Shown here piece after piece: positions 30 through 58,783 of a DNA stretch of 64,000 nucleotides. The notes under the pieces were generated by a model. It did no database searches. It was not told the DNA's origin and saw only the letters and a list, made by a program, of their open reading frames with translations. This DNA is from a virus: the IMG/VR virus record IMGVR_UViG_3300027141_000003, positions 1 through 64,000 of that record, one strand, 5' to 3'. The stretch's first letter is position 1. Every line of letters begins with the position of its first letter. Made by a program: the position numbers and the translations under genes.

Positions 30-51
30 TGTCAGTGGGTTCGTGTATAAT
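30..51 (+). promoter_or_regulatory. PafBC-type (RecA-NDp) promoter TGTCAG-N10-TATAAT
   Basis: TGTCAG TGGGTTCGTG TATAAT, followed by the AACGAAAG leader and ORF 87. Confidence 0.8.
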
Positions 52-86
52 TCCATACATAACAACAAACGAAAGAAGGTCTGCCA

Positions 87-293
87 ATGGCTACCAAACT
101 ATACACAATCGAAAGCCTACTTGTAGGAAAAAACTATCGCTCAAACTCTCGCCACTTTTCAGGCGAAATTGTTTCTGCTGAACACCGCCCAGAAATTTGG
201 TATGGTGAAAAAACTGAAGCCTATCTAATCGAAATTCGTGCTGGTGGCTTGCGAAATAAATTTGCAACAATCGCAGTAAAGGTTGGTGAATAA
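87..293 (+). CDS. hypothetical early protein
   Basis: ORF with promoter and GAAGG RBS. Confidence 0.75.
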   Translation: MATKLYTIESLLVGKNYRSNSRHFSGEIVSAEHRPEIWYGEKTEAYLIEIRAGGLRNKFATIAVKVGE

Positions 294-295
294 TA

Positions 296-421
296 ATGGG
301 ATACATCGAAATTTTCCGAATGGACAACGAGGGTGCTGGCTGGGTAGATTTATCCGAAGCAACACCCGATGAATTATTCAACATCGAATTAGGATTATTA
401 GAGGAAGGTGCGTTCGAATGA
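296..421 (+). CDS. small acidic hypothetical protein (41 aa)
   Basis: MGYIEIFRMDNEGAGWVDL..., closely packed with its neighbours; below the ORF-track cutoff. Confidence 0.6.
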   Translation: MGYIEIFRMDNEGAGWVDLSEATPDELFNIELGLLEEGAFE

Positions 422-543
422 ACTTAGACGAATTCAAAAAACACGTGTTAGAAACACGTCAGGCAAGCAAGGCGGAAGCCTTGTCAGTGCTATCTGCTAC
501 AATTACAACTTCAACAAACGAAAGGGAAAACCTAAATGGCTAA
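418..543 (+). CDS. small hypothetical protein whose 3' end encodes the next promoter
   Basis: MNLDEFKKHVLETRQASKAEALSVLSATI...; ATGA overlap. Confidence 0.55.
   Translation: MNLDEFKKHVLETRQASKAEALSVLSATITTSTNERENLNG
482..503 (+). promoter_or_regulatory. PafBC-type promoter
   Basis: TGTCAG-N10-TACAAT. Confidence 0.75.
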
Positions 544-679
544 AATGAAACAACTACTTGATGAAATTATAAATTGCGATTTATGTAATGGTAAAGGCTG
601 GCAATTTTTTGGCAACGCTACTGAATACGATGTAGAGGCTTGCGAATGTAATCCTAATGAATTAGAGGTAAATTACTAA
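536..679 (+). CDS. small Cys-rich (zinc-finger-like) protein
   Basis: CDLCNGKG...CEC; AACGAAAGGG RBS. Confidence 0.6.
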   Translation: MAKMKQLLDEIINCDLCNGKGWQFFGNATEYDVEACECNPNELEVNY

Positions 680-807
680 TGAGCGAAATTGCTGGAATGT
701 GGATTTGCGATAATTGCGATACTCTCGCCATTGTGTCAGTGGAAACTGATACAATACTTGTAACACAATGTAAATGCGTAACTAACGAAAGGGAAACTAA
801 TGTATAA
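679..807 (+). CDS. small Cys-rich protein containing an embedded promoter
   Basis: CDNC...CKC; TAATG overlap. Confidence 0.55.
   Translation: MSEIAGMWICDNCDTLAIVSVETDTILVTQCKCVTNERETNV
734..755 (+). promoter_or_regulatory. PafBC-type promoter
   Basis: TGTCAG-N10-TACAAT. Confidence 0.75.
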
Positions 808-1003
808 AATAACTTGCGCCTATGATAGCAACGCTCCACACTGGTCTGCCGAATACGAAAACGAATTCGGTGCGTGGGAAAGTTTTTTCCGTTTTACCGA
901 TTGGGGAATGGCTAACGATTACTCAACTGTAAATATATCAACGCCAACTGGCAAAATGTATACAAAGGTTTTTTATCGTAGCGGAATGGTGGCAGTAAGA
1001 TGA
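800..1003 (+). CDS. hypothetical early protein
   Basis: ORF with AACGAAAGGG RBS. Confidence 0.7.
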   Translation: MYKITCAYDSNAPHWSAEYENEFGAWESFFRFTDWGMANDYSTVNISTPTGKMYTKVFYRSGMVAVR

Positions 1004-1191
1004 TGACCCGTAAAGATTATGTTGCAACCGCAGAAATTCTAAAGTATGCAAGCAATAAAATTCACCCCGCTGTTTTTTCTAAAGTCGTAAATGATTTCGC
1101 TGAAATGTTTGCAATTGATAATGAAAGATTTGATGTAAAACGATTTCACGAAGCGAGTGGATATAATGTTCCTAACTTCACTTCAAGATAA
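1000..1191 (+). CDS. hypothetical phage protein (MTRKDY...NERFD..RF type)
   Basis: ATGA overlap; motif common in small phage proteins. Confidence 0.7.
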   Translation: MMTRKDYVATAEILKYASNKIHPAVFSKVVNDFAEMFAIDNERFDVKRFHEASGYNVPNFTSR

Positions 1192-1297
1192 AGTAAAACG
1201 CATTCAGGAATTGCGTCGCAGTAATGCGGCGCAACCTGTTCGCAATAAAAAAAAATACACACGCAAAATAAAACATAAAAATAAATTTGATCAATAA
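1166..1297 (+). CDS. small basic protein with ArfA-like KKKYTRKIKHK motif
   Basis: MFLTSLQDKVKRIQELRRSNAAQPVRNKKKYTRKIKHKNKFDQ, translated by hand. Confidence 0.5.
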   Translation: MFLTSLQDKVKRIQELRRSNAAQPVRNKKKYTRKIKHKNKFDQ

Positions 1298-1315
1298 AAT
1301 TAATTTGTCGACAAA

Positions 1316-1375
1316 GCCCGCAGAGCTACGGGGTCGGGCGTGTCGTTACGGGTGTGATCTAAAACACCCTGAAAT
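1316..1375 (+). repeat. early-region fixed-geometry repeat, copy 1 of 9 (GCCCGCAG...GGG-N13-TTACG-N16-CCCTGAAAT)
   Basis: Other copies have TTACG-like blocks at 2334, 4215, 5520, 7377, 9923, 11143, 11192 and 11360. Confidence 0.8.
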
Positions 1376-1395
1376 CCTGCGTGTCAATTAGATAA

Positions 1396-1417
1396 TGTCG
1401 GTCCATTCTGTTATACT
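1396..1417 (+). promoter_or_regulatory. PafBC-type promoter
   Basis: TGTCGG-N10-TATACT. Confidence 0.8.
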
Positions 1418-1445
1418 TACAACCTTACCAACGAAAGGCCAACTA

Positions 1446-2165
1446 ATGAAATTGAAACGCTCTAATGATAGAAAGGTGGCTAACCTTGTCACAAAAAATG
1501 GAAAGCAAGCCGCAATTGCGAACACGTTCGGCCTACCTGCAGGAAAAGACTTTTCTTGTCCTGGTGCAACGTCTATCTGTGAGACTGTTTGCTACGCAGG
1601 CAAATTGGAAAAACTATATAAGGCAGTAAAGGCTAATCTTTTACACAACTGGGAATTGTTACGCAATGCAGACAATGACACAATGGTGCGCCTATTAGAT
1701 GAGATGATTGTTGATTTTGTTGCTGATTGTGATAAGAAGAATGCGCCTAAGTTATTCCGTATCCACTGGGACGGAGATTTCTTCAATGATACTTATACTT
1801 ATGCCTGGAAGACTGTTATCGAAAATCATTCCGATATTCAATTTTGGGTTTATACACGTGTAAAGTCTGCAGCGCTTATTCTAAAGGATGTATCTAATCT
1901 ATCTCTTTACTATTCCACCGACGATGAGAATAAAGAAATCGGTCACGAACTAAAAGTAAACGAAGGTATTCGCCTTGCTTACTTAGGCAAAACATTCGCC
2001 GTAACCGAAAGCACAATGAAAGAATTGACGGGCAAGCCTGGTGCAAAATGTCCTGAGAATATGAAATCAATTCCACTAATTAGCAATGCAGGTTCTGCTT
2101 GTGTATCTTGTGGCTTGTGTGTTTATGGTAAAGCAGACATTCGATTTAGCGCAACTAAAAAATAA
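1446..2165 (+). CDS. GP88-like phage protein (Cys-cluster, radical-SAM-related fold)
   Basis: CPGATSICETVCYA, FRIHWDGDF and C-terminal CP...CxxCxxC; start moved to the ATG after the RBS. Confidence 0.75.
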   Translation: MKLKRSNDRKVANLVTKNGKQAAIANTFGLPAGKDFSCPGATSICETVCYAGKLEKLYKAVKANLLHNWELLRNADNDTMVRLLDEMIVDFVADCDKKNAPKLFRIHWDGDFFNDTYTYAWKTVIENHSDIQFWVYTRVKSAALILKDVSNLSLYYSTDDENKEIGHELKVNEGIRLAYLGKTFAVTESTMKELTGKPGAKCPENMKSIPLISNAGSACVSCGLCVYGKADIRFSATKK

Positions 2166-2177
2166 GGAGAAATAAAA

Positions 2178-2300
2178 ATGGCCGAATTAAAATATTTAAA
2201 TGCGTTGCTAGCATCTGTTGTTGGTACTCCTGATCAAGCAAAAGCTGCAAAAGAATATTTAGCAGAAGTAGATCCCGACATATGGGGCCAGGAGGAGTAA
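2178..2300 (+). CDS. small hypothetical protein (40 aa)
   Basis: AAGGAG RBS; MAELKYLNALL... Confidence 0.55.
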   Translation: MAELKYLNALLASVVGTPDQAKAAKEYLAEVDPDIWGQEE

Positions 2301-2383
2301 AAGGCCCGCAGTACTGCGGGGTCGGGCGTGTCGTTAAGGATGTGATAATAATCACCCTGGAATTTTGGGCGGGTTGCCTAAAA

Positions 2384-2405
2384 TGTCAGTAGGATGTGTT
2401 ATACT
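2384..2405 (+). promoter_or_regulatory. PafBC-type promoter
   Basis: TGTCAG-N10-TATACT. Confidence 0.8.
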
Positions 2406-2433
2406 TCCATTATCCAACAACGAAAGGCTACAA

Positions 2434-2658
2434 ATGTCTAATCAAATTAAAGTTCCACACTCCGTAGTATTCGAGGCCATTATTGACCTTGATAAAATAC
2501 CTGCTAACTTACTTCCTGCATTACTAAAACTAAATGAAACAGATTTACTTACTATGTGTAAGGAAGCAACACTACACGCTCTTACTCAATCTAATTTATT
2601 GCAAACCGCTAATGAGTTTAATACTTGGGCTGAAGTAACTATCAAGGAAGGGGAATAA
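2434..2658 (+). CDS. hypothetical early protein
   Basis: Start follows the AACGAAAGG RBS. Confidence 0.7.
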   Translation: MSNQIKVPHSVVFEAIIDLDKIPANLLPALLKLNETDLLTMCKEATLHALTQSNLLQTANEFNTWAEVTIKEGE

Positions 2659-2660
2659 TA

Positions 2661-2930
2661 ATGGGAAGCATAACTGCATTAGGTATTCAAGATAGCGTGT
2701 TAGATTTAGAAACACAATTAGCCTATCACTTACAGGGTAATCATTACCCACCCGTTCCACTTTCTATGGTGCAACCTTGCATAGATGCTATTGACGCATA
2801 CTATGATGAGGATTTTGATCGACAGATAAAGATGCCTGAAGGCGTATCTTATAAAGGATTAGATACAGCACCTGCCTCCGCAATTATTGACCAACACCAC
2901 CTAGAGTTTTGGCTACCTGAGTGTGATTAG
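2661..2930 (+). CDS. hypothetical protein (HLQGNHYPPVP motif)
   Basis: ORF with RBS. Confidence 0.75.
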   Translation: MGSITALGIQDSVLDLETQLAYHLQGNHYPPVPLSMVQPCIDAIDAYYDEDFDRQIKMPEGVSYKGLDTAPASAIIDQHHLEFWLPECD

Positions 2931-2937
2931 TATCACA
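2922..2937. promoter_or_regulatory. CRP/GlxR-like box TGTGA-N6-TCACA (perfect)
   Basis: TGTGATTAGTATCACA. Confidence 0.65.
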
Positions 2938-2974
2938 CAATAACTTTCTCAAATAATGAGATACGGATACTAAA

Positions 2975-2996
2975 TGTCGGTGGTATCCGCTATAAT
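2975..2996 (+). promoter_or_regulatory. PafBC-type promoter
   Basis: TGTCGG-N10-TATAAT. Confidence 0.8.
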
Positions 2997-3025
2997 ACTA
3001 CTACCAACCAAACGAAAGGAAACAA

Positions 3026-3184
3026 ATGACAAACGCAACACTAGAGGTAGGCAAGTCCTACACAACCACTCAAAGTGGTATCACAGGAATAATCAAGTCG
3101 GTAGATACTCTGCCTAACGGCACAAGTCGTATCCTGCTTGATGTAGAAGGCAAGGAACGCTGGACAAGCGCAACTGCCAACTAA
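3026..3184 (+). CDS. small beta-barrel (SH3/KOW-like) protein
   Basis: MTNATLEVGKSYTTTQSGITGIIKSV...; strong RBS. Confidence 0.65.
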   Translation: MTNATLEVGKSYTTTQSGITGIIKSVDTLPNGTSRILLDVEGKERWTSATAN

Positions 3185-3289
3185 GGAGGCACACACCACT
3201 AATCGGGTGCTAAGCCACGAAACAGGGACAGTTTTGAGAGTGTTCTAGTCCAATGTCGTAAGTAAGAACTCTCCACCTTCGGGTGGAAA

Positions 3290-3311
3290 TGTCAGACCCC
3301 CCTGCTATACT
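3290..3311 (+). promoter_or_regulatory. PafBC-type promoter
   Basis: TGTCAG-N10-TATACT, preceded by a C(TTCG)G hairpin. Confidence 0.75.
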
Positions 3312-3346
3312 ATCCATAACAACAACCAACGAAAGGTAATAAATAA

Positions 3347-3763
3347 ATGAGCAGACAAATCACAGTAAAGGTCGCAACGACCAAAGTAATCAAGGCACTA
3401 GAAACTCGTCTAGCAACGCTAGAAAAAGACTATGCTTCACAAGAAGCAAAAGAAGCAAAGTTTCAGAAATCAGTAGAAGCGTGGCGCAAGGAAATTGGTA
3501 AGTGGGCTATTGCCAACTTCTCAAAGGCTGAGAACCTTCGCACAAACTATCGTGCTTGGAACAACACTCTCAATGTTGATTTTGACATTATCACAAAGGA
3601 AGGCAACTTCCCTACTGAACCTCAAAAAGATTTTGAGCAAATCCATCAGCACAGTTATCGTGAGATGAAAGAGGACATTACAAATGCTCTCACAATTCTC
3701 AAAATGACAGATGAGGAATTAGTCAATGCTTCTACAATGAAGCAGATTGCTAAGTATCTCTAA
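3347..3763 (+). CDS. hypothetical coiled-coil early protein
   Basis: ORF with promoter and RBS. Confidence 0.8.
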   Translation: MSRQITVKVATTKVIKALETRLATLEKDYASQEAKEAKFQKSVEAWRKEIGKWAIANFSKAENLRTNYRAWNNTLNVDFDIITKEGNFPTEPQKDFEQIHQHSYREMKEDITNALTILKMTDEELVNASTMKQIAKYL

Positions 3764-3811
3764 ATAGGTTTTGGGGGGTTAGCACACAAAGTCTAGACAC
3801 CTAAACCCAAA

Positions 3812-3838
3812 CAACCTGAGTAAGTTGCCAAACTGCTC
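3812..3838 (+). ncRNA. candidate 27-nt H-type pseudoknot, copy 1
   Basis: CAAC-CT-GAGTA-A-GTTG-CCAAAC-TGCTC; covarying copies at 5367 and 28962(-). Confidence 0.55.
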
Positions 3839-3850
3839 ACCCTTTGGGGC

Positions 3851-3880
3851 TAGACAAACTCTAACTCCAAATGCTATAAT
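3851..3880 (+). promoter_or_regulatory. sigma-A-type promoter
   Basis: TAGACA-N18-TATAAT with TG extension. Confidence 0.6.
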
Positions 3881-3907
3881 TAAAATCCCTACTAACAAAG
3901 GAACAAA

Positions 3908-4150
3908 ATGAAAAATCGTTATCGTGTAGAAATTTATGACGAAAACAAGTTAAATGATTTAACTATCTATTCTGAGCAAGGTGTCGATAAGGAATACTTA
4001 ACTGAATTAGTATTTTCTAATCTCCGCCGTTTTAACGGAACAATTCGTGCTTACGTTTATGATAATCTAAAGAAAAAGAAAATCACAGCGCTATTTTTAC
4101 CAGAAGAATTTATTCCCAAGAAAACAAACTTAACTAATCTAGTTGGCTAA
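3908..4150 (+). CDS. hypothetical protein
   Basis: ORF with AAAGGA RBS. Confidence 0.7.
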   Translation: MKNRYRVEIYDENKLNDLTIYSEQGVDKEYLTELVFSNLRRFNGTIRAYVYDNLKKKKITALFLPEEFIPKKTNLTNLVG

Positions 4151-4202
4151 AAAGTTGCAGCGATCTTCTCTTTCGCTGCAGCTGGCCCGCAGAGCTGCGG
4201 GG

Positions 4203-4232
4203 TTATCCACAGGGTTACGAGAGTTATCCACA
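4203..4232 (+). promoter_or_regulatory. two perfect DnaA boxes (TTATCCACA), 21 bp apart
   Basis: 4203-4211 and 4224-4232. Confidence 0.65.
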
Positions 4233-4245
4233 ATCCCTGGAAATT

Positions 4246-4261
4246 TGTGATAATGATCACA
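4246..4261. promoter_or_regulatory. CRP/GlxR-like box (perfect)
   Basis: TGTGATAATGATCACA. Confidence 0.65.
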
Positions 4262-4292
4262 TCACCCAATTCGGACATATTGTATCTAATCC

Positions 4293-4321
4293 TAGACAAT
4301 GTCAGTGGCAGATGTTATACT
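4293..4321 (+). promoter_or_regulatory. dual promoter: TAGACA -35 plus PafBC-type TGTCAG-N10-TATACT
   Basis: TAGACAATGTCAGTGGCAGATGTTATACT. Confidence 0.8.
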
Positions 4322-4350
4322 GAATCTAACAACCAATCGAAAGGAATAAA

Positions 4351-5358
4351 ATGGCTCATAATCTAGAAATGGAAAACGGCGAAGTTGCTTTTGCTCTTCG
4401 TGGTGCTCCTGCTTGGCACAATCTAGCAAATCGCATCTTTACAAAAGATGAGGAAGTTACAACTAGTCTAATGCTTGAAGAGGCAAAATTGGCTAATTGG
4501 AATGTTCGCTTATCACCATTGACTGACCACATTTCAGAATCTTGGAATGATGTATCTCAGGCATCTCTCGTCATTCGTGACAACCCATTCAACAAGGGAA
4601 TCGATGTTCTCGCAACTGTCGGCAAGCGTTACAAGCCTGTTCAGAATGAAGAATTGTTTGCATTCGCTGATGCAATTCACGATGCCAATGCTGATTGCCG
4701 TTGGGAATCTGCTGGCTCACTAAAAAAGGGTAAAGTTGTTTTCGGAACTGTGGACATTCCCCGCACAATGGTTCTTGACCCACAAGGCGCTAACGATGAG
4801 ACAAAACTTTATCTTATCGTATGGACATCACACGATGGTTCTGTTGCTGTTCAAGCAGCCGTTACACCTGTTCGTGTAGTATGCCAAAACACGCTAAACC
4901 TTGCAATGAAGAATGCTAAGCAATCTTTCAAGATTCGCCACACGCAATCTGTTGAAGGTCGCATTCAAGTTGCTCGTGAAACTCTTGGGCTTGCTCTTGG
5001 ATACTTTGATGAATTCGAAGTTCAAGCAAAAGCGCTTTACTCACAAGCAATCACCGATGCTGAATTCTCTAAGTTGATTCAGACAATCTATCCTAAGCCA
5101 GATAAAGATGCAGCAAAAGTTGCTCTTACTAAGTGGGAGAATAAGGTTGTTCTAATTGATGACCTTTATCATAACTCACCAACTAACGCTACAATCAAGG
5201 GAACTAAGTGGGGTGCGTTCAATGCACTAACTGAGCGCCTTGATTATTATCGTTCAGGTCGTGGCAATTCTGAAACACTAATGGCTGGTGCTTCAGGCTT
5301 TGACCCAATTCTCACCGCAGAAAAAAATAAGTTGTATCGAATGGTTGCAACTTTCTAA
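4351..5358 (+). CDS. DUF932/DUF945-family phage/plasmid protein
   Basis: MAHN..., AWH, YKPVQN, SHDGS, RVVCQNTL and TKWGAFNALTE motifs. Confidence 0.85.
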   Translation: MAHNLEMENGEVAFALRGAPAWHNLANRIFTKDEEVTTSLMLEEAKLANWNVRLSPLTDHISESWNDVSQASLVIRDNPFNKGIDVLATVGKRYKPVQNEELFAFADAIHDANADCRWESAGSLKKGKVVFGTVDIPRTMVLDPQGANDETKLYLIVWTSHDGSVAVQAAVTPVRVVCQNTLNLAMKNAKQSFKIRHTQSVEGRIQVARETLGLALGYFDEFEVQAKALYSQAITDAEFSKLIQTIYPKPDKDAAKVALTKWENKVVLIDDLYHNSPTNATIKGTKWGAFNALTERLDYYRSGRGNSETLMAGASGFDPILTAEKNKLYRMVATF

Positions 5359-5366
5359 ATAATAAA

Positions 5367-5393
5367 AATCCTAGGCACGATTTAAAACTGCCC
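5367..5393 (+). ncRNA. candidate pseudoknot, copy 2 (immediately 5' of tRNA-Asp)
   Basis: AATC-CT-AGGCA-C-GATT-TAAAAC-TGCC. Confidence 0.5.
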
Positions 5394-5397
5394 GCAA

Positions 5398-5471
5398 GAT
5401 CTCTTAGCTCAGTTGGTTAGAGCGCTACCCTGTCACGGTAGAGGTCACGGGTTCAAGTCCCGTAGGGGTCG
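5398..5471 (+). tRNA. tRNA-Asp (GTC)
   Basis: Cloverleaf: acceptor GATCTCT/AGGGGTC, anticodon arm CTACC-CTGTCAC-GGTAG, TTCAAGT T-loop; CCA not encoded. Confidence 0.92.
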
Positions 5472-5559
5472 CATCTCAAGATATGAGACGCCCGCAGACC
5501 TGAAGGCCAAATGTCCGTTTTACGGCTTTTATAAAAAAACCCCTGAAAGCTATTGTATA

Positions 5560-5581
5560 TGTCAGTGGGGCCTGGTACAAT
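5560..5581 (+). promoter_or_regulatory. PafBC-type promoter (leaderless, ATG 7 nt downstream)
   Basis: TGTCAG-N10-TACAAT-7nt-ATG. Confidence 0.75.
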
Positions 5582-5588
5582 TCTCTTT

Positions 5589-6254
5589 ATGACCAACGAA
5601 CTAGTATCAACTAAATATACATTTGCCTGTGACCCAGACGAATGCGATGTACTAATAGAACTAACATCATCTGACGGATTCGGATTCCCGTCGGGTGTGA
5701 CTGAAATCACTTGTCCGTGTGGCCGTAAGCCAGTCTTATTGTCAGTGGTCAATGCTACAATTGCTTCAACAACCCAAACGAAAGAGGAAAAAATGGAAGA
5801 GACAACAACACCTGCAGTAACAGTTCCTGATACATATAACCCTAATCTATTGGTAACTTACAAAGTTATCCGTGGTTACTCAGATGCTGAATATGCAACT
5901 GACAAGGTCACATCAATTGAATGGGACCTACACAATGCACGTCAAGCACAGAAGCACAATAGTGTTTACCAAGGCAAGATTGACACAGTCAAAGATATTA
6001 TCACTGAAGCATATGCTGATTCAGATGACCAAGAAACACTTCGTGCAATTGCTGAAGCGCTTTCAATTGAACTAATCAGAGAATTTGAATTTACCGCATC
6101 TATCGAGGTTAGCGGAACATATTCATATAACATTCTTGAAAATGATTATGACTTAGACCTTGAGTCAGAAGTTACAGATGCCCTCTTTGCTGATTCACAG
6201 AACGGTAACATTGAAATTACCGACCAAGAAGTATGCAACGTTAGTGAGCGCTAA
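5589..6254 (+). CDS. acidic hypothetical protein with N-terminal Cys motif; second in-frame start at 5793
   Basis: CDPDEC...CPCG N-terminus; internal promoter 5740-5761 and RBS before ATG 5793. Confidence 0.7.
   Translation: MTNELVSTKYTFACDPDECDVLIELTSSDGFGFPSGVTEITCPCGRKPVLLSVVNATIASTTQTKEEKMEETTTPAVTVPDTYNPNLLVTYKVIRGYSDAEYATDKVTSIEWDLHNARQAQKHNSVYQGKIDTVKDIITEAYADSDDQETLRAIAEALSIELIREFEFTASIEVSGTYSYNILENDYDLDLESEVTDALFADSQNGNIEITDQEVCNVSER
5740..5761 (+). promoter_or_regulatory. PafBC-type promoter inside a CDS
   Basis: TGTCAG-N10-TACAAT. Confidence 0.75.
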
Positions 6255-6466
6255 TGTACTTTGAGTTGACTGCTCCCGATAGGCTATCTATGGAGATGGC
6301 TTATTGGGATGCACAAATGATTGGGCTGGACCCAACTGCATTATCACCGTTGACATTCAACATCGGAACTGGTAGTATTGAGAAGGTGAGTCGCATTCGT
6401 GATAAGTATAACTTAATTGAAAGTTATACATCAGACTACGAGCCAACAGGATACACAAGGAGATAA
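6254..6466 (+). CDS. hypothetical protein
   Basis: TAATG coupling. Confidence 0.7.
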   Translation: MYFELTAPDRLSMEMAYWDAQMIGLDPTALSPLTFNIGTGSIEKVSRIRDKYNLIESYTSDYEPTGYTRR

Positions 6467-6467
6467 G

Positions 6468-6614
6468 ATGTCAGATTACAAAGATGGTTTTGATGACGGG
6501 TATAAATTTGCTCGTGAAGAGATTATGGAAAAGTTATCAGAGATTGATATCGCAGACATAGACTCTTGGATCTTAGACCGTCTTTCAGAAATGATCGAAG
6601 GTGGGAAACTATGA
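6468..6614 (+). CDS. small acidic hypothetical protein
   Basis: AGGAG RBS; MSDYKDGFDDGY. Confidence 0.65.
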   Translation: MSDYKDGFDDGYKFAREEIMEKLSEIDIADIDSWILDRLSEMIEGGKL

Positions 6615-6805
6615 TGGCTGAATGGCTTAAGTGTGATCAATGTGCAGCTCAGGCTATGTGGGAAGCTAAAAAGGATACAGCATCCCTTTATTTCTGTGGC
6701 CACCACAAAAATAAACAGGGCGAGCCACTTGTGGACTGGGCCCAAGAAATGATACAATTGCTTAACTACGAGCAAGAACAACAACTAGAAAAGGCGGAAA
6801 AGTAA
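6611..6805 (+). CDS. small zinc-binding protein (CxxC...FCGHH)
   Basis: Motif typical of small actinobacterial/actinophage proteins. Confidence 0.7.
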   Translation: MMAEWLKCDQCAAQAMWEAKKDTASLYFCGHHKNKQGEPLVDWAQEMIQLLNYEQEQQLEKAEK

Positions 6806-7209
6806 TGGGAGATAGAGCAAACTTCGTATTCGTGCAGCCAAACGGTCAATCGATTGTTTTGTACGGACACTGGGCTGGACATCAAATGCTACAACGTTTA
6901 GCAGAATCAGCAGTTAAGGCACAGGGCCGTTGGTCGGACCCTTCATATGCAACACGCATTACAATCAGCAATATGATTGGCGAAGGCTGGGCAATGGAGA
7001 CAGGCTGGGGATTATCTGTAAATGAAATTGCAGACAACGAGCACAAGATTCCTGTAATTGATTTTCAGCAACAGACATTTAGTCTTCACGAAGAGGCGCC
7101 GTATTCAGATGAATCTAATAAGATTCGTGGGATGAAGAATGAGGCAATCTTTACACAGGACCTAAGTAACTTCTGTGAGAAGTACTCAGACCAATTGGTT
7201 CGAGTATAA
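6805..7209 (+). CDS. hypothetical protein (MGDRAN...LYGHWAG)
   Basis: Coupled ORF. Confidence 0.8.
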   Translation: MGDRANFVFVQPNGQSIVLYGHWAGHQMLQRLAESAVKAQGRWSDPSYATRITISNMIGEGWAMETGWGLSVNEIADNEHKIPVIDFQQQTFSLHEEAPYSDESNKIRGMKNEAIFTQDLSNFCEKYSDQLVRV

Positions 7210-7244
7210 CTAATTAATCTAAAGGTGCCTCTATAGTCTTCGCA

Positions 7245-7342
7245 GGCCAGGGGTTAACTAAAGCATCGGATTTTACTTTCGTTGGTTACCGATAGCAGCC
7301 TTAGTAAAGAACCCTGGATCATTAACGTGTCCAGGGCTTTTT
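7245..7342 (+). ncRNA. candidate antisense sRNA/attenuator with loop complementary to the early-gene leader, followed by an intrinsic terminator
   Basis: Stem ATCGG/CCGAT encloses CTTTCGTTGGTT (reverse complement of AACCAACGAAAG); terminator CCCTGGA/TCCAGGG-CTTTTT. Confidence 0.55.
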
Positions 7343-7470
7343 GCTGCCCGCAACAGCTGAGGGGAATAAAGTCTATTTACGGATAACATATATAAATCCT
7401 GGAAATTGGACATATTGGACATATATCTATCTGATCATAGCTTTTGTGGTGTGAATCACACGATATTGCA

Positions 7471-7500
7471 TAGACAAATGTCAGTGGTCCATTATATAAT
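7471..7500 (+). promoter_or_regulatory. PafBC-type promoter with TAGACA -35
   Basis: TAGACAAA TGTCAG-N10-TATAAT. Confidence 0.8.
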
Positions 7501-7527
7501 TAGAACCTATCAACGAAAGGATATAAA

Positions 7528-8319
7528 ATGCCAAATTGGTGTTACAACACATTAACTATCCAAGGACCTAAGTCTGAGGTAGATATGATTAAAGATAGAT
7601 TGAATGCTCCATTTACATTAGCACAAGAGACATATGGTATGGGTGATATTAGTCTTTCAGGATTCCCCACCAAAATTGAACAGGTAAGTTATTCTAATCC
7701 TGTCTTTGCTTTCTTTAATATCCACTCATATAAAGATGAGGGAATTACTGATGAGGAATATGCCTGCCAGCCTTCTCGTGGTAACTATGATATACAAAAT
7801 GACCCTGATTGGTTCCGCAAGTCTGTTGAGTTCGCTAAGACTCAGAAGGATTGGTATTCTTGGAATAATTCTAATTGGGGAACTAAATGGGATGTAGCCG
7901 TCCGTGACGGTGATGAATATCCTGAAACAGAATTGCTTGAATATAAATCAGAAGGTGATGACAACTGGGTTATCTATAAGTATGAGACTGCTTGGTCACC
8001 TGCTGTAACTATCTTAACTAAACTATCTAATCTTGTTCCTAACTGCCTGCTTACTTTAGAGTTTGAGGAAGAGACAGGTTGGGGTGGGGAATATGAGATT
8101 GTTCGTGGTGAAGTAAAAGAACTAGTTGAATATGAAAATCGTTGTAATGAATGTGATTCATATGACACATTGTCTTATTGTGAGAATGACTGCGGTGAAT
8201 TCTGTTCTGAATGCGAGCACGGCTCTTGGAGAGACGAAGAGGCTATGAAAGAATGTCAGACCCATATGCTAACATTACCTATTAAGACCTACACACAGGA
8301 AGAGGCACTAAATGGCTAG
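7528..8319 (+). CDS. DUF1281/YubB ferredoxin-like domain protein
   Basis: MPNWCYN, WGTKWD and TAWSP motifs; Cys-rich C-terminus. Confidence 0.8.
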   Translation: MPNWCYNTLTIQGPKSEVDMIKDRLNAPFTLAQETYGMGDISLSGFPTKIEQVSYSNPVFAFFNIHSYKDEGITDEEYACQPSRGNYDIQNDPDWFRKSVEFAKTQKDWYSWNNSNWGTKWDVAVRDGDEYPETELLEYKSEGDDNWVIYKYETAWSPAVTILTKLSNLVPNCLLTLEFEEETGWGGEYEIVRGEVKELVEYENRCNECDSYDTLSYCENDCGEFCSECEHGSWRDEEAMKECQTHMLTLPIKTYTQEEALNG

Positions 8320-8536
8320 TTTCTTAGAAGATGTAAATCAAATGGTAATTGACGCTTGCTATCAAGATATAGCAGAACAATTACTTGAAGATTGGATTAA
8401 TAATAATCTTGACGAAGGGCAATATTATGCAGATAAGCAATTTGCTGAAATGTCAGGAGATAAGTTTGTTCAATCTGAATTTAATAAGTTCTATGAACTT
8501 AAAGAGGGAGATGAGGGTTACATTGACATACTATAA
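8312..8536 (+). CDS. acidic hypothetical protein
   Basis: Overlapping ORF. Confidence 0.7.
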   Translation: MASFLEDVNQMVIDACYQDIAEQLLEDWINNNLDEGQYYADKQFAEMSGDKFVQSEFNKFYELKEGDEGYIDIL

Positions 8537-8693
8537 CTTTGTAATTAGATTACACGGTGCAGTTGGCGCTAATAGCGAACAAGAAGCAATTGAGAAAATC
8601 AATGGACACTTAGATGACCTAGGTGATGTTGAAAGTATTATTAAGTATGACTTAGGTTGGCCTGAGACATCTTGGGAATTGGAGGAAGCATAA
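8523..8693 (+). CDS. hypothetical protein
   Basis: Probable TTG start after GAGGG. Confidence 0.55.
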   Translation: MTYYNFVIRLHGAVGANSEQEAIEKINGHLDDLGDVESIIKYDLGWPETSWELEEA

Positions 8694-8875
8694 TGTTAGG
8701 ATATACGGAATCTGATCTAAATAGGATGATTAATGCTATACACGATTCAAAGCTTTTTTATCTTAGGACCCCGTCAGATTTAATGGACAAGGAGCCTTTG
8801 AGGAAAGACTTGGAAGACGCTGTTAGTTTCTTGCAAGGTTTGTGGGCGGAGGGTTACTTTGACTACACAAACTAA
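8693..8875 (+). CDS. hypothetical protein
   Basis: GGAGG RBS; TAATG coupling. Confidence 0.65.
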   Translation: MLGYTESDLNRMINAIHDSKLFYLRTPSDLMDKEPLRKDLEDAVSFLQGLWAEGYFDYTN

Positions 8876-9044
8876 ATCTAGTAAGTTCATAGAGTATATG
8901 AAGATACATCTAATTAGTCTTAACCAGGACTTAGAGGGTGATTATAATGTTCAATCTAAGATTAATATCCAGGGACAAATTATGGCAACCGAACATTTAT
9001 TGTCAGTGGCGACTGATATAATGAATGAAAACGAAAGGGTCTAA
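8859..9044 (+). CDS. hypothetical protein with embedded promoter
   Basis: Ends ...LSVATDIMNENERV. Confidence 0.6.
   Translation: MTTQTKSSKFIEYMKIHLISLNQDLEGDYNVQSKINIQGQIMATEHLLSVATDIMNENERV
9001..9022 (+). promoter_or_regulatory. PafBC-type promoter
   Basis: TGTCAG-N10-TATAAT. Confidence 0.75.
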
Positions 9045-9045
9045 T

Positions 9046-9324
9046 ATGGAAACTCTATATAAGGATGATGAACTTCCTTTGCACCTCCAGCGTTTAGTTG
9101 ACGCAGGTGTTAATGGATTAGATATAATGCACGGCGAACTAAAGAATCTAATGTTGATTGCCGAAGAGCAATTGGCTTGGGCTCAGGCAATTGAAGATGA
9201 GACCGAAGAGGCAATGGATTCAATGGCACGTACAGAGGCGGAAGGACGACTAGATACTCTAGTTGAACTATATAAACTAACATATGCTTTATCATTTGCG
9301 ATTGGAGCACGTAATGAAGCCTGA
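9046..9324 (+). CDS. hypothetical protein
   Basis: AACGAAAGGG RBS. Confidence 0.7.
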   Translation: METLYKDDELPLHLQRLVDAGVNGLDIMHGELKNLMLIAEEQLAWAQAIEDETEEAMDSMARTEAEGRLDTLVELYKLTYALSFAIGARNEA

Positions 9325-9634
9325 AGATAAAGATAAACTAAACGAATGTTTGGCTATTCTAGATAAGACGGACCTAGGTCTATCCTTAGTTTGGCTATGG
9401 ACTTGGTCTACCATTAACAACATATTTGAGGATGAGACGTACAGGCAGAACTGCACCATAGATGAGATGTGGGACCACCTCTGTGAGGCTGTAGAGGCGG
9501 GCCAGGGCTTCTCTCTGGAGTACGGGGCAGAACAGCACAATGATGACGTCCTTGACTGGATGTTAAGCCGTGACTACATTGTTGACTCAATGTTTGAAGA
9601 AGAGGAAGAGGAGGAAGAAGATGAAGATGAGTGA
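9314..9634 (+). CDS. acidic hypothetical protein with poly-Glu tail
   Basis: Overlapping ORF. Confidence 0.7.
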   Translation: MKPEDKDKLNECLAILDKTDLGLSLVWLWTWSTINNIFEDETYRQNCTIDEMWDHLCEAVEAGQGFSLEYGAEQHNDDVLDWMLSRDYIVDSMFEEEEEEEEDEDE

Positions 9635-9914
9635 CACCTACATCAATGATCAGTTAAGTAAGGCCCAAGCTTTGTTATGGTCTGGATCTCTACACGAGGT
9701 AGACGAAGCACATAACATTGTATCTAATCTAATACAAGATAGGTTGGGCAATGAGTAAATATAAAGTAAAGATAGAGATAGTAGGGGGAGTCCCATATGT
9801 TCTTGAATGCCCACCTGAAGTAGATGTTGAGATTAAACAGGTTAATCATTGGCAGAGGTGGCGTGAACAACAAAAACTAATTAAAGATAAGTTGGTAAAG
9901 GAAGGAGGGCAAAA

Positions 9915-10148
9915 ATGACTCATTATGAGCCGAGCTTAGAAATCCTGGAAGTTGAGTATTCTTGTAGTCCAGGAGGAATTGATCTATTTGAAGTCTATGA
10001 TAAATCTGATATACCTTTATCTGTCCCAATATATGAGACAGAGAACTTGACCGATGCGGTCCTATTCTGTTACAATTTAGGTAAAGACTTTACTGTCAGG
10101 ACATTAGCGGAATGGAATGAAAGGGAGTTGGAGTATGCCTCTATATAG
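9915..10148 (+). CDS. hypothetical protein
   Basis: AAGGAGG RBS. Confidence 0.7.
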   Translation: MTHYEPSLEILEVEYSCSPGGIDLFEVYDKSDIPLSVPIYETENLTDAVLFCYNLGKDFTVRTLAEWNERELEYASI

Positions 10149-10335
10149 AGTGTTTGGTACCAAGTATAAAAACTACTACACAATTGTTTCGGCTGCCGAC
10201 GAATATCAAGCAGCGGAGATTGCAAACCTGCGTCCAGAAACTGATTGGGACGCAATTGTTACGGATGACGTCATTGAGGCGACAGACGTATTCTTAGATG
10301 AAGATACCGAGATAGATTTAAATCTCAACATATAG
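10135..10335 (+). CDS. acidic hypothetical protein
   Basis: Overlapping ORF. Confidence 0.65.
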   Translation: MPLYRVFGTKYKNYYTIVSAADEYQAAEIANLRPETDWDAIVTDDVIEATDVFLDEDTEIDLNLNI

Positions 10336-10346
10336 GCGGAAAGCTA

Positions 10347-10375
10347 TTTACAATTTCGTAAATAGTTGATATAAT
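10347..10375 (+). promoter_or_regulatory. sigma-A-type promoter
   Basis: TTTACA-N17-TATAAT. Confidence 0.65.
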
Positions 10376-10407
10376 AAATATAAACATCTCTTGAAAGGGG
10401 ATCTAAA

Positions 10408-10554
10408 ATGGCAACAAAGCGTGAATATCTAAAGTCACAAGGAATTACAGTTGGCCTACGTGGGCGCTTCTCAGCTGCAGCAGTAAAAGCTCTATCAGAT
10501 GCACAGACCAAGGGCATCACATTCGAGGCGGAAACAAAGTCAGCAAAGAAGTAA
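10408..10554 (+). CDS. Lsr2-like DNA-binding domain protein (48 aa)
   Basis: REYLKSQGITVGLRGRFSAAAV matches the Lsr2 C-terminal RGR AT-hook pattern. Confidence 0.65.
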   Translation: MATKREYLKSQGITVGLRGRFSAAAVKALSDAQTKGITFEAETKSAKK

Positions 10555-10589
10555 CTAATCTATTGTACGATCACGAGGGGCTGGCTAAA

Positions 10590-10611
10590 TGTCAGTCCTT
10601 CGTGCTATAAT
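10590..10611 (+). promoter_or_regulatory. PafBC-type promoter
   Basis: TGTCAG-N10-TATAAT. Confidence 0.75.
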
Positions 10612-21273: not shown

Positions 21274-21616
21274 TTTTCTTCTTTAACTTCTTCCATAGGT
21301 CTTGATCTTTATGCAGATTCTTAGACTTATCAATTGATCCAGATGTCAAGTATACACCACCCCATACACCGTATTCATTTCCTTCAACTCCAGATTCATA
21401 GCACATGCTAATCACTGGACAACTTAAACACATCTCGTCTATGTTCTTTGCTATGTTAGAATCGGATTCATACTTCTCATAAAACAAATCAGTATTCATT
21501 CCTCTGCATATAGCAAGATGAAACCAATCTAAAGAATCTTGATCTATTCCTAAACTACTTAAAATGTCTGACATACTTTGTGGGCAGCTTCCATATTCCA
21601 TTGTTGGCAACTGCAA
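21263..21616 (-). CDS. whiB: WhiB-family Fe-S transcription regulator
   Basis: AIC...FY...CLSCPVISMC...YGVWGG. Confidence 0.9.
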   Translation of the reverse strand: MQLPTMEYGSCPQSMSDILSSLGIDQDSLDWFHLAICRGMNTDLFYEKYESDSNIAKNIDEMCLSCPVISMCYESGVEGNEYGVWGGVYLTSGSIDKSKNLHKDQDLWKKLKKKNVY

Positions 21617-46233: not shown

Positions 46234-46415
46234 GTCTCGCCAGTAAATTCTACCGAAAATGCTGGATCTATGTCAAGCACTCTTACGTATCCTTTACCCC
46301 TCATATCCTGAACCAAAAGGTTTTCGTACTGAGGCCTTAAACTTATTAGCTGAGAGTTGTCATGAAACTCTACATCTATTTGAAATCTTTTAATTCTTCG
46401 ATGCGTCATTTGCAA
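46107..46415 (-). CDS. hypothetical protein
   Basis: Lies between helicase and primase. Confidence 0.6.
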   Translation of the reverse strand: MQMTHRRIKRFQIDVEFHDNSQLISLRPQYENLLVQDMRGKGYVRVLDIDPAFSVEFTGETWKFLMSIHGVYVGKKKAWQSEGITQGKSIPRTTRQTILNLS

Positions 46416-47634
46416 ATGGGTTCTCGTAAATTTCTTTGATAATACCTCTGTTAATTTCCCAATCTAAAAAGACATTGAAATCCATTCCGTGACGATTCTT
46501 TCTGCTAACAACCTCAATCATATTGGTATCAGTGTACTTGTGAATAGCAATAGCCATATCTGCATCATACTCAATAGCCTTAGACCAAGCAACTTGGCTA
46601 AGCATAGGTGGTGCATCTTGGTCTGTAATATCATCCATAGTTGCTGCAGTGATATCAATAACTGGAATATTGTTTGTCATAGCAAGCATTTTAAATTCAC
46701 GAGATACGTTCATGTTACGCTCTGTTGCACCTGAACTCCGCTTATTATCAGAAAACAATTGGTGATAATCTAAAATAACTAAGTCTGGTTTATGCTGATC
46801 TATCTTAGACTGAATAGTATTAGCGTTAACTTCTCCCATACCTTCATTAGATACCAGAATGAATCCGTTTTTATTCTCAAATCTCTTCTGACCCCATGAA
46901 CGGAATGTGTCTACATTTACGTCACCTCTTGCAAAGTCTGAAGCACGAAATAATCCTGAGCCCATCATTGTATAAATACGATCACGCATATTTTCTGGAG
47001 ACATTTCAAGGGATACAATCATAGGCTTAAAGCCCTGCTCCCACGCCTTACAAGCAAGGTAGGATGTAAACCATGTCTTACCACGTCCTGGCCAGCCAAT
47101 AGCCACTATGAGGTGCCCTGGAGCCATACCAGTAGGATACGCTTTGTCTATAGCATCAAAGCCTGTAAGAATTCCTGGAGCCCCTCCCATAATTACTGAG
47201 CGCTCCTTGACTGCTAGGAAATGTTTTTCTGCTAACTCAATGTCTGTTACGTCTACGTCACGAACATGATTTGTAAACTTAGAAAGCTGAGACAACTTAG
47301 CCTGAAGATCTCCCAATACTCTAGAGGCTGCATCTTCTTTTAAAGCAGAGCCACTCTGAATAATAATATTTTTTAGTCTGCCAGTTAGGTATTCATTCTT
47401 TAGTTTATCTAAATAATAGCCAGTCTCTGCTTTTGTTTCTACTGGCTCAAAGTCCTTGAATCTTTCCATAAGGATTCCAGCTTCTGGAACTGCCTTGAAC
47501 TTATAATAATAAGACTTTAATGAATCCCAGATATCTTTATGTGAAGTAAATATCTCATCTACATTGTCTGCAAGCAGGGTGCTGATGTCTTTATTCTTAC
47601 ATACTGCTGAGATTAACTCGGCTTCTGTATTCAT
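46390..47634 (-). CDS. dnaB: DnaB-like replicative helicase
   Basis: GWPGRGKT, SLEM, LDYHQL, IEYDAD and KNRHG. Confidence 0.92.
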   Translation of the reverse strand: MNTEAELISAVCKNKDISTLLADNVDEIFTSHKDIWDSLKSYYYKFKAVPEAGILMERFKDFEPVETKAETGYYLDKLKNEYLTGRLKNIIIQSGSALKEDAASRVLGDLQAKLSQLSKFTNHVRDVDVTDIELAEKHFLAVKERSVIMGGAPGILTGFDAIDKAYPTGMAPGHLIVAIGWPGRGKTWFTSYLACKAWEQGFKPMIVSLEMSPENMRDRIYTMMGSGLFRASDFARGDVNVDTFRSWGQKRFENKNGFILVSNEGMGEVNANTIQSKIDQHKPDLVILDYHQLFSDNKRSSGATERNMNVSREFKMLAMTNNIPVIDITAATMDDITDQDAPPMLSQVAWSKAIEYDADMAIAIHKYTDTNMIEVVSRKNRHGMDFNVFLDWEINRGIIKEIYENPFANDASKN

Positions 47635-47951
47635 TCATTCCCGCCTTCAACTAGTTCTTTCGTTGCCTGTAGTAGCAATTTACGATGCATTGCATCTTTT
47701 TCTCGTTCTGTTTTTAAATAGTCTAGCTTATCAAAGTTATAAAAGAAGAAACTAAGAGGGTGGCCTGACTTGGTTGTCTTGAAGTAGTATACCAAAAGTT
47801 CCTTTGCTTTGTCCATACCAACGCTATCTATAACATCTTGCATTGCCCACTTTTCACGAAATTTATTTATCCTAGGCTTTTTATTATATCTTTCAAGATA
47901 GAGGTTCTCGTATAGTCCAATTAGAACATATGGCAGTTTTTCATTTGCCAC
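47631..47951 (-). CDS. hypothetical protein (possible helicase loader/inhibitor)
   Basis: Position only. Confidence 0.6.
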   Translation of the reverse strand: MANEKLPYVLIGLYENLYLERYNKKPRINKFREKWAMQDVIDSVGMDKAKELLVYYFKTTKSGHPLSFFFYNFDKLDYLKTEREKDAMHRKLLLQATKELVEGGNE

Positions 47952-57856: not shown

Positions 57857-58783
57857 TTAAAACTCCAGCAATAACTTGTATTCAATGTCTACGGGTCTTC
57901 CTGGCTTCTTTATTAACGGGGTAGACAATACGGATCTACTAATTATTCCATATCCTGGATCAAAGGTATCTTCATCATTAACTCTAATGCCATCAAAGTA
58001 GACTGTTGTGTTCCCGCCAGCTGCTGTTACGGCAACTCCTATTTTTGTAATAGATGCAGGATCTGGCAAGTTTGGAGAAGCAGTATAATTTGAAAAAAGG
58101 CTGTTCATTGACAGACTTTGTATTCTATCTCCTGAGCCAGTTGCGGGAGTAAAATCAACATAGTAGTATGCTGTTGGAGAACTATAAAACTTTACTCTAA
58201 TGTTAGATAAGTTATTGTCTGATTTTTTGTAAGCGATAGATATAGTATCATTAATGCTATAGCCTGAGATATCATAAGAATCTAAAGAGTTAGTGTATTC
58301 TTTTGTTGTACCAGAAGTTGCATCTACTCTAATCATGCTATCATCAATTTTTGATAAAAATGTGTAGTTCCCAGAAGCATCCTGGGTATTACTCTGAATA
58401 GTTGGATTGAGTATTCCGTCAAACCAATTAAAATTATTTGTAAAAGAAGAAATAAACTGACTATCATAGTTGTTGAAAGAAGATCTACCTCCAGGATAAA
58501 GACCTATTTCTGACACTACACCAGACACATCTTGTGGAATTGTTGAGGAATAAACAACATTATATTGAAATACTGGATTGTTGCTTCCATCTACCCCAGT
58601 TTGAATTACGTCAAAACTTGATAAGAGGACGGGCAATCTATAAAATTCAAACTCTAGTTTAGTATCATTCCCATTAGCATCGACAGGAGTAGAGCCTATT
58701 CCTAATGCTAGCTCTCTGCCAGAAGAAGAATTAACCCCTGCCAGTTGACCTGCTAAAAATCTTTTACCAAATTTAGTTATCAT
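57857..58783 (-). CDS. minor tail protein
   Basis: MITKFGKR...LEFEFYR...EIGLY; position in the tail operon. Confidence 0.7.
   Translation of the reverse strand: MITKFGKRFLAGQLAGVNSSSGRELALGIGSTPVDANGNDTKLEFEFYRLPVLLSSFDVIQTGVDGSNNPVFQYNVVYSSTIPQDVSGVVSEIGLYPGGRSSFNNYDSQFISSFTNNFNWFDGILNPTIQSNTQDASGNYTFLSKIDDSMIRVDATSGTTKEYTNSLDSYDISGYSINDTISIAYKKSDNNLSNIRVKFYSSPTAYYYVDFTPATGSGDRIQSLSMNSLFSNYTASPNLPDPASITKIGVAVTAAGGNTTVYFDGIRVNDEDTFDPGYGIISRSVLSTPLIKKPGRPVDIEYKLLLEF

Follow-up and report, generated by a model that had tools for sequence, protein, structure and literature searches.

The c4 antisense RNA of phages P1 and P7, about 77 nt long, pairs in trans through exposed loops with a leader containing a ribosome-binding site and blocks its translation; its only target operon is icd-ant, from whose transcript it is itself excised, and the sar RNA of P22 and the OOP RNA of lambda are cis-encoded antisense RNAs with a single target. 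On the bacterial side, the 6C small RNA (sRNA; RF01066) and the loop-seed sRNAs of Gram-positive bacteria without Hfq pair with purine-rich ribosome-binding regions through hairpin-loop seeds; to our knowledge Hfq is missing from the actinobacteria, whose sRNAs, 6C among them, rely on exposed loops for seed pairing. A review covers OOP along with other phage sRNAs (PMC12197685), and none of the phage antisense RNAs c4, sar and OOP is described as addressing a gene class via a shared leader. In phage T4, many early mRNAs are inactivated post-transcriptionally by RegB and RegA via a short word in their translation-initiation regions (PMC3014915). The Cluster K mycobacteriophages carry the start-associated sequence (SAS), a 13-bp word that joins a Shine-Dalgarno (SD) core to bases unable to pair with 16S rRNA and stands a few bases before the start codons of 13–19 non-structural genes, with one oppositely oriented copy that lies outside the gene starts (Pope et al., 2011, PMC3203893); its role was still called ill-defined in 2024 (PMC11373665). 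Here we analysed positions 1–64,000 of the 109,912-bp virus record IMGVR_UViG_3300027141_000003 (38% G+C), hereafter the window, in which an earlier note, made from the letters alone, had placed at 7245–7342 a hairpin RNA with a loop antisense to the leader shared by early genes.

The hairpin was found as described: the stem ATCGG (7265–7269)/CCGAT (7289–7293) encloses the 19-nt loop ATTTTACTTTCGTTGGTTA (7270–7288), the minus-strand reading of this loop leads only to ATG-CTT-TAG, and a terminator with CCCTGGA...TCCAGGG followed by CTTTTT lies at 7312–7343. The extent given for the feature was too small, and the real element reaches from about 7217 or 7222 to 7343 on the + strand. Sequence comparison confirmed the hairpin as one arm of this larger predicted + strand RNA (about 7217–7343), in which a closed three-way junction of the helices P0, P1 and P2 is followed by the terminator. 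The junction core (7222–7302, +), delineated by the covariance model R1, pair counts, RNAalifold and the minimum-free-energy fold, comprises P0 (7222–7226 with 7298–7302), P1 (7227–7232 with 7249–7254, with an apical hairpin at 7233–7248), the junction strand J12 (UAACUAAA, 7255–7262) and P2 (7263–7269 with 7289–7296, A7294 being bulged), with A7297 unpaired. The apical loop of P2 (AUUUUACUUUCGUUGGUUA, 7270–7288) carries at 7276–7283 the anti-leader core CUUUCGUU, the complement of the leader word AACGAAAG. The intrinsic terminator, by folding a stem CCCUGGAUC/GUCCAGGG followed by a U run (7311–7343), was missed by a strict terminator scan because its loop is long. The single-sequence minimum-free-energy fold of the window gave the same three-way junction with a local z-score of only −2.1. 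No + strand open reading frame (ORF) spans the conserved core, the conservation of the element tracks RNA pairs and not codons, and abundant G-U pairs, which would be mismatches on the other strand, identify the + strand as the RNA.

The homologous elements were collected through the 263-amino-acid (aa) neighbour gene, which has 220 relatives in IMG/VR; 80 of these loci and 12 more found via the upstream gene were fetched, and about 85 of them contained the element. With a DNA pattern of the scaffold only, IMG/VR gave more than 118 matching stretches; of 80 loci listed from these, 66 were confirmed by R1, and a second pattern brought in a distant clade. All related contigs are IMG/VR viral contigs. 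With the covariance model the RNA was confirmed in about 150 related phage and metagenome loci with at least 88 distinct sequences, and in both independent retrievals (85 and 66 loci) the RNA occurred exactly once per locus and always on the early-gene strand. R1, a covariance model across relatives as the earlier note had proposed, scored 79.9 bits (E 9e-17) at the window element and found one copy in the whole genome. The consensus of 49–52 distinct aligned copies reads N4-GG-U pairing with G-CC-N4 in P0, GCNNCU pairing with AGNNGY in P1, mostly with an apical hairpin, a junction UAA(A/G)UAAA, and GCAG... pairing with ...CU(A)GC in P2. When the hand-written structure was scored, 92.9% of the alignment cells were paired, compared with 25–46% when the partners were slid, and the covariation score was 0.41 vs. 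0.09. In the R1-based alignment of 58 distinct sequences and 19 pairs, 94.3% of the cells were paired vs. 28–46% with slid partners, the covariation score was 0.417 vs. at most 0.09 in controls, and 186 cells showed compensatory changes vs. 65 in shuffles, none of 500 shuffles being as high. The same three helices were returned by RNAalifold for 18 diverse copies newly aligned with MAFFT. Scaffold variants with a truncated or different P2 tip lie at L124:12251–12325, L133:12099–12174, L119:9712–9788, L254:5062–5142(−) and L197:2740–2826, and their stems still covary, e.g., AGAAU/AUUCU vs. AGGAU/AUCCU.

Searches of Rfam 15 with the window returned nothing at the gathering threshold, and with E values up to 10 the region 7150–7550 gave only two terminator-like chance matches, ohsC (18 bits) and NsiR1 (17 bits). 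The same search on nine relative loci gave tRNAs and one sub-threshold match only, ARAGORN found neither tRNA nor tmRNA at the element, and none of the Rfam 15 families considered, including C4 antisense RNA, 6C, tRNA, riboswitches and ribozymes, could claim it as a member. On this comparative evidence, the element defines a structured RNA family that is new, well supported and absent from Rfam, with boundaries like those of a gene. It is abundant in ~110-kb phages of freshwater actinobacteria, a group with few isolates and hardly any regulatory data.

The boundaries of the element were then compared among the relatives. The RNA had been proposed to derive from a 3′ untranslated region (3′-UTR), a view the relatives do not bear out, because most of them have a good promoter directly upstream of the RNA, although the window itself has only TATAAC at 7205–7210 (+). 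This putative −10 box, found by reading the sequence, is weak, overlaps the stop codon of the gene 6805–7209 and was not called by a simple promoter scan; a transcript initiated from it would start near 7217. Upstream of the RNA, 82 of 104 distinct contexts show a −10-like box and 71 an extended −10; at a matching distance the box reads TGTATAAT in close relatives and TGGTATAAT in many others, and most relatives carry TGGTATAAT or TGATATAAT upstream. Full −35/−10 promoters were found in the distant clade (TTGACG-17/18-TACAAT) and in another clade (TTGACA-18-TAAAAT). Downstream of the RNA, at least 73 of the 104 distinct contexts have a terminator-like hairpin with a T run, about 14 contexts have no terminator, and in the distant clade a U run comes directly after P0. 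The presence of an own promoter in most relatives therefore argues for a stand-alone sRNA gene rather than a 3′-UTR piece or an attenuator.

The about 11 early leaders of the AACGAAAG(G) type lie where they had been placed earlier. The word AACGAAAG has 12 copies in the window, when 1.75 are expected (standard deviation (sd) 1.28; none of 100 shuffles reached 12), an about sevenfold enrichment, and as a motif it is confined to promoter-proximal early leaders. The ten + strand copies each lie 6–13 nt before an ATG and 7–16 nt after a −10 box, a spacing which indicates that the motif is the SD region of very short leaders. The candidate target leaders, all on the + strand, carry AACGAAAG at 68–75, 517–524, 784–791, 2419–2426, 3011–3018, 5777–5784, 9030–9037 and 7512–7519, the last belonging to the gene 7528–8319 downstream of the RNA. 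The leader at 1430–1437 reads CCAACGAAAG (predicted loop duplex −16.9 kcal/mol), and the variant leader AATCGAAAG at 4335–4343 precedes the gene 4351–5358 (DUF932; −14.3 kcal/mol). The leader AACCAACGAAAG at 3324–3335, with its motif at 3328, is a perfect 12-nt complement of CTTTCGTTGGTT (7276–7287) in the loop, as had been noted, and forms the genome's best predicted duplex (−18.4 kcal/mol). A further copy of AACGAAAG lies outside the window at genome position 108803. A second minus-strand copy at 47657–47664, 22 nt upstream of the ATG of a 414-aa gene (46390–47634), is either a chance occurrence or marks a late gene with an early-type tag.

Next, the pairing between loop and leaders was evaluated. 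The loop has 8–12 nt of complementarity to the translation-initiation regions of 11 leaders, and the RNA has the marks of an sRNA, namely no coding potential and a conserved structure with a conserved single-stranded seed, CUUUCGUU. When 278 ORF starts were ranked by their predicted duplex with the loop, the best places went mainly to early leaders, at −11.5 to −18.4 kcal/mol, compared with a genome mean of −6.7 (sd 2.7). Duplexes of the loop with the early leaders of the window were predicted at −10 to −18 kcal/mol, and those of the same leaders with the 16S rRNA tail at −6 to −10 kcal/mol, the tail used being the canonical one. Since about 0.9 minus-strand copies of this 8-mer are expected by chance in 64 kb, the single inverted copy is not significant alone; what lifts it above chance is that 80 distinct homologous RNAs carry the 8-mer unchanged in the loop of a covarying hairpin. 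The loop is thus conserved among the relatives, CUUUCGUU being present in the P2 loop of 80 of 88 distinct RNAs, and the P2 stem and the loop flanks vary freely around it. The P2 tips of the other RNAs are a 3–4-nt loop in a clade that we call clade X (L124, L133, L300), AGUGUGG in L119, CCUNGAAA in a clade with mostly leaderless early genes, and CUGGGGGUGUU in L197, L299 and L304.

Whether the leaders change with the loop was assessed on leaders defined independently of the motif, as the 45–50 nt after a TGTC(A/G)G-N10-TAnnnT promoter. Among 409 distinct GAAAG leaders of loop-bearing genomes, the base just before GAAAG (−1) is C in 80%, −2 is A in 83% and −3 is A in 92%, whereas in 27 leaders from genomes with a loop-less RNA or no RNA seen, −1 is A in 66% and C in 11%. 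Orthologous leaders show the same difference, reading AACGAAAG in the loop-bearing group and AAAGAAAG or AATGAAAG in the other. By prediction, changing this C to A costs the sRNA pairing about 4.4 kcal/mol and gains 0.5 kcal/mol for the 16S tail. In a tree of the neighbour gene, clade X is nested within the loop-bearing phages with 99% support, and L145/L146, in which no RNA was seen, are placed elsewhere, as is L119. The co-variation of loop and leader that the earlier note had proposed to test was thus found only in part: the leader C mostly tracks the presence of the loop, but no loop variant has one or two changes, and true covariation was rejected since the loops are either CUUUCGUU or entirely different. 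At the flanks, UUCC-type loops go with leaders continuing GA (35–67% vs. at most 22%) and GG-tailed loops with C at the base before the motif (38–53% vs. 10–32%). Loop flanks and leader flanks thus shift together in part, a partial agreement that is confounded by shared ancestry.

Taken together, we favour, with a probability of about 0.5, the reading that this element encodes a trans-acting anti-leader sRNA that would compete with 16S rRNA for early ribosome-binding sites. Thereby the core of the earlier proposal, a structured RNA with a loop antisense to the early leaders, is retained as a non-coding + strand RNA with a supported loop-leader link, and the 3′-UTR origin and the attenuator are not. 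The proposed sRNA gene would stand alone and yield about 125 nt (~7217–7343, +) from its own promoter, folded into the closed three-way junction and ended by the intrinsic terminator. Its P2 loop CUUUCGUU would pair with AACGAAAG(G), the SD region of the first gene in about a dozen early transcription units. The loop would mimic the 16S rRNA tail (CCUUUCU) except for one G, and in the leaders GAAAGG is preceded by the C that matches this G, by which pairing to the sRNA would become stronger and pairing to the ribosome slightly weaker. As it accumulates, the RNA would occupy the early ribosome-binding sites and lower early-gene translation, and the pairing may also expose the early mRNAs to decay. 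From these patterns we infer that the RNA is made, that it pairs in the cell and that repression is the outcome. If true, a dozen separate early transcripts would be addressed via a shared leader tag, a compact, RNA-only timing of a gene class, where phage early-to-late switching is usually explained by proteins such as repressors, sigma factors, RegA and RegB; and the loop would be a natural anti-SD mimic with its specificity resting on one base.

Several observations weigh against this proposal. Position −1 is the only leader position that separates the two groups, the As at −2 and −3 being common to both. The RNA of L119 is loop-less, yet 10 of its 15 leaders keep the C; with two concordant losses and one discordant, the independent events are few and the association is suggestive rather than statistical proof. 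For the distant-clade loops CCUNGAAA and CUGGGGGUGUU, no complementary leader set was found, and their sense and antisense 7-mer matches are at chance level. In the single-sequence fold, weak inner pairs of the P2 loop (ACU/GGU) would leave a UUCGUU hexaloop, so part of the loop 8-mer can pair within P2. Moreover, at least 11 mRNAs with strong promoters would have to be served by a single sRNA gene. Finally, the loop-less lineages keep a covarying scaffold, which accordingly functions without the loop, and this persistence suggests that the junction probably has an additional role, e.g., in binding a protein or another cell component.

The last point leads to a less likely alternative, in which the RNA acts through its three-way junction, as a decoy, cofactor or stabiliser that binds a protein or machinery, with the P2 loop peripheral and its complementarity to the leaders arising from likeness to the 16S anti-SD tail. 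Consistent with this, the highest conservation is seen in the junction bases (GGU, GC..CU/AG..GY, UAARUAAA, GC...GCAGCC), which occur in every clade, the tops of P2 vary by clade or shrink to a 3–4-nt loop while their stems still covary, the RNA almost always follows the same 134-aa gene, and the L119 leaders keep their C without a loop. However, a mere likeness to the anti-SD tail leaves unexplained the invariant GUU beyond the anti-SD-like CUUUC, the matching AAC of the leaders and the restriction of the −1 C to loop-bearing genomes; a protein specific for the loop would leave the complement of the loop unbound, and no partner proteins were found. Regarding the upstream gene, the 134-aa protein (6805–7209, +; phrog_31860, an unannotated PHROG) is almost always encoded immediately before the RNA, has over 1,277 metagenome homologues and contains conserved motifs rich in His, Asp and Glu (GHWAGH, DNEH, SLHEE). 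Its AlphaFold model (pLDDT 86.7) had no Foldseek match at E ≤0.001 and a best VIA-align Z of 3.7, and no Pfam family matched; without a recognisable fold, the protein provides no evidence for or against RNA binding.

The second alternative accepts the pairing but reverses or redirects its effect: the RNA could protect the 5′-ends of early mRNAs from 5′-end-dependent RNases, the junction could tether these mRNAs to the ribosome or a phage factor for preferential translation, or the leaders could be a sponge for an sRNA with a host mRNA target. All the evidence for loop-leader pairing applies equally here; in addition, the motif lies within a few bases of the predicted transcript 5′-end, the conservation of the scaffold independently of the loop suggests docking, and the RNA gene lies inside the early region, so that it would be made together with its targets. 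Nevertheless, the duplex covers most of the SD sequence (GAAAG of GAAAGG), and by established sRNA mechanisms an occupied GAAAG is expected to block 30S binding, which favours repression of the early genes. The leaders of the loop-less lineages also have the better match to the 16S tail, an observation that relief from a competitor explains no worse than the loss of a helper. We therefore consider a positive or other effect unlikely, and repression by the anti-leader sRNA remains the preferred outcome.

Third, the element could act in cis, as a riboswitch, an attenuator or a put-like antiterminator that controls read-through of the 7311–7343 terminator into the gene 7528–8319. A closed three-way junction with conserved bases and a terminator right behind it recalls an aptamer joined to an expression platform, and in the window the 3′ strand of P1 could pair instead with the 5′ half of the terminator. 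The extended stem described in the earlier note, ACTAAAGC/GCCTTAGT and CCAGGGGTT/AACCCTGG, can indeed form in the window, but these pairings are not conserved in the relatives. For ACTAAAGC/GCCTTAGT, 65.1% of the cells pair vs. 64.0% in shuffles, no covariation was found, and its bases belong to the junction and P0. The hallmarks of a riboswitch or cis-leader, a fixed 5′-UTR position and conserved alternative pairings, were likewise looked for and not found. The gene 7528–8319 is served by a promoter of its own, located about 150 nt beyond the terminator and separated from it by operator-like repeats, and in other lineages other genes, again with promoters of their own, come after the RNA, which argues against a cis-regulatory leader and against the attenuator. 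The roughly 14 contexts without a terminator, and the distant clade in which P0 runs into the U tract and leaves no room for a switch, make this alternative very unlikely. The weakest alternative, a DNA site AACGAAAG/CTTTCGTT bound in either orientation by a phage or host regulator with its position in an RNA loop incidental, draws on the closeness of the motif to promoters and on a double-stranded site reading the same in both orientations, but is highly improbable because the distance to the −10 box varies (7–16 nt) while that to the start codon is as expected of an SD sequence, and because the inverted motif occurs once per genome, only inside this RNA, and always at the tip of a hairpin with stems whose covariation, G-U pairs included, is that of an RNA.

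In the stretch that separates the terminator from the next promoter, the window contains an operator-like inverted repeat, CCCGCA-N6-TGAGGG, a palindrome GTGTGAATCACAC and a conserved TTTACGG block (7347–7364, 7449–7461), all kept across relatives; judged by sequence, these repeats are probably binding sites for a regulator of the gene 7528–8319. A conserved box GCCCGCAA...GAGGG after the terminator was considered as a phage-polymerase promoter and rejected, since by the pattern used it occurs only once in the genome. The window encodes a tRNA-Asp at 5398–5472, and in clade X (L020, L032, L041, L046) a tRNA-Asp(GTC) gene sits in the slot that the RNA uses elsewhere, about 200–270 nt upstream of the homologue of the 263-aa gene, with the scaffold RNA about 2.2 kb further downstream. 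In the distant clade (L254, L303, L305, L302, L245, L306; 40–47% G+C), where the RNA has a full −35/−10 promoter and a U run after P0, most early genes are apparently leaderless, with ATG 6–7 nt after the −10 box. On the reverse strand of L254, the P2 loop GCCUAGAAAU (6402) shares CUAGAAAU, in the same sense, with the leader at position 40; the match spans the leader and the start of the promoter-proximal gene (GGCUAGAAAUG) and may be chance or mimicry. The conserved leader CCUAGAAAGGAG is also present in the L254 clade.

The genome itself points to an actinobacterial host. The record carries a 127-bp terminal repeat, probably an assembly overlap, and its genes lie on the + strand from about 108.8 kb round to about 13 kb and on the − strand in the remainder. 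A WhiB-family gene at 21353–21526 (−), with 44.8 bits exceeding the Pfam cut-off, points to this host, and so do the early promoters, which follow the pattern TGTC(A/G)G-N10-TAnnnT without a −35 box and resemble the mycobacterial PafBC (RecA-independent) promoter; 16 matches lie in the early block of the record (window 30–10611), e.g., TGTCAGTG-N8-TATAAT at 7479–7500, and each relative (related loci L094–L173) has 10–18. The WhiB gene and these promoters are the only host clues remaining. The 1.5-kb region gave no BLAST match in either mode against 50,697 phage records, and no cultured phage was thus matched at the DNA level. A pattern scan of bacterial genome contigs returned three true RNA matches, in metagenome-assembled genomes labelled Bacteroidia, Polynucleobacter and an unclassified 'bacterium', and two further matches that are weak and pattern-driven. 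As all three true matches are on contigs of only about 3 kb, they are probably misbinned phage DNA, and a host assignment via them was rejected.

Compared with the described systems, the window RNA resembles c4 in being phage-encoded and structured, with a loop that would be directed at leaders containing a ribosome-binding site; however, c4, sar and OOP have one target each, whereas the window RNA would address about a dozen transcription units via a shared 8–12-nt tag. The regulatory logic proposed is that of T4 RegB and RegA, and the difference lies in the effectors, which in T4 are proteins (RegB cuts GGAG and RegA binds AU-rich sites) and here would be a base-pairing RNA; on this analogy the window RNA would be an RNA counterpart of the RegA/RegB shut-off. 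Like the 6C-type sRNAs, it would direct a hairpin-loop seed to ribosome-binding regions without Hfq, but these sRNAs are host-encoded, have C-rich loops and many unrelated targets, and show no sequence or structure match to the window RNA in Rfam.

The layout of the window is shared with the Cluster K phages, which are also actinophages with an SD-extending word restricted to the non-structural genes and one inverted copy not associated with a gene start. In Adephagia (JF704105) we found sixteen + strand SAS copies and one − strand copy, the latter in the 432 bp without genes that separate genes 92 and 93. On the transcribed strand this inverted copy forms the apical loop GCCUCCUAUC (58682–58694) of a long hairpin (record positions 58599–58759; z −6.5). 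The region, mostly unannotated, is conserved across 182 Cluster K records, and its stems show compensatory changes. The anti-SAS loop is absent in Pixie and diverged in Unicorn and Bryler, and the Unicorn case speaks against the pairing idea, because its loop has diverged (4+4 bp complementary) while SAS is unchanged, so that loop and motif do not covary there. Late transcription of Adephagia is reported to start in the gene 92–93 gap (PMC11373665), where the hairpin sits, whereas the window RNA lies in the early region. The putative Cluster K RNA consists of two long hairpins without a three-way junction and has no homology to the window RNA, the SAS word GGGATAGGAGCCC differs from the window word AACGAAAG(G), and host GC content and phage type differ as well. 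With its different word, the window system would work like SAS without being a member of it, and the parallel is one of layout only and not proof of mechanism. As a tentative generalisation, which we regard as speculative, actinobacterial phages might use a two-part code, in which an SD extension tags a temporal class of genes and one RNA bearing the anti-tag switches the class by competing with the 16S tail. The three-way junction would then serve as a reusable carrier docking on a factor of host or phage, with the P2 tip as its exchangeable guide (CUUUCGUU, CCUNGAAA, CUGGGGGUGUU or none), and the same code would also explain the SAS of Cluster K. Since the Cluster K mycobacteriophages are cultured, with Mycobacterium smegmatis as host and BRED mutagenesis at hand, they offer a tractable system in which both this idea and the question raised by SAS in 2011 can be tested.

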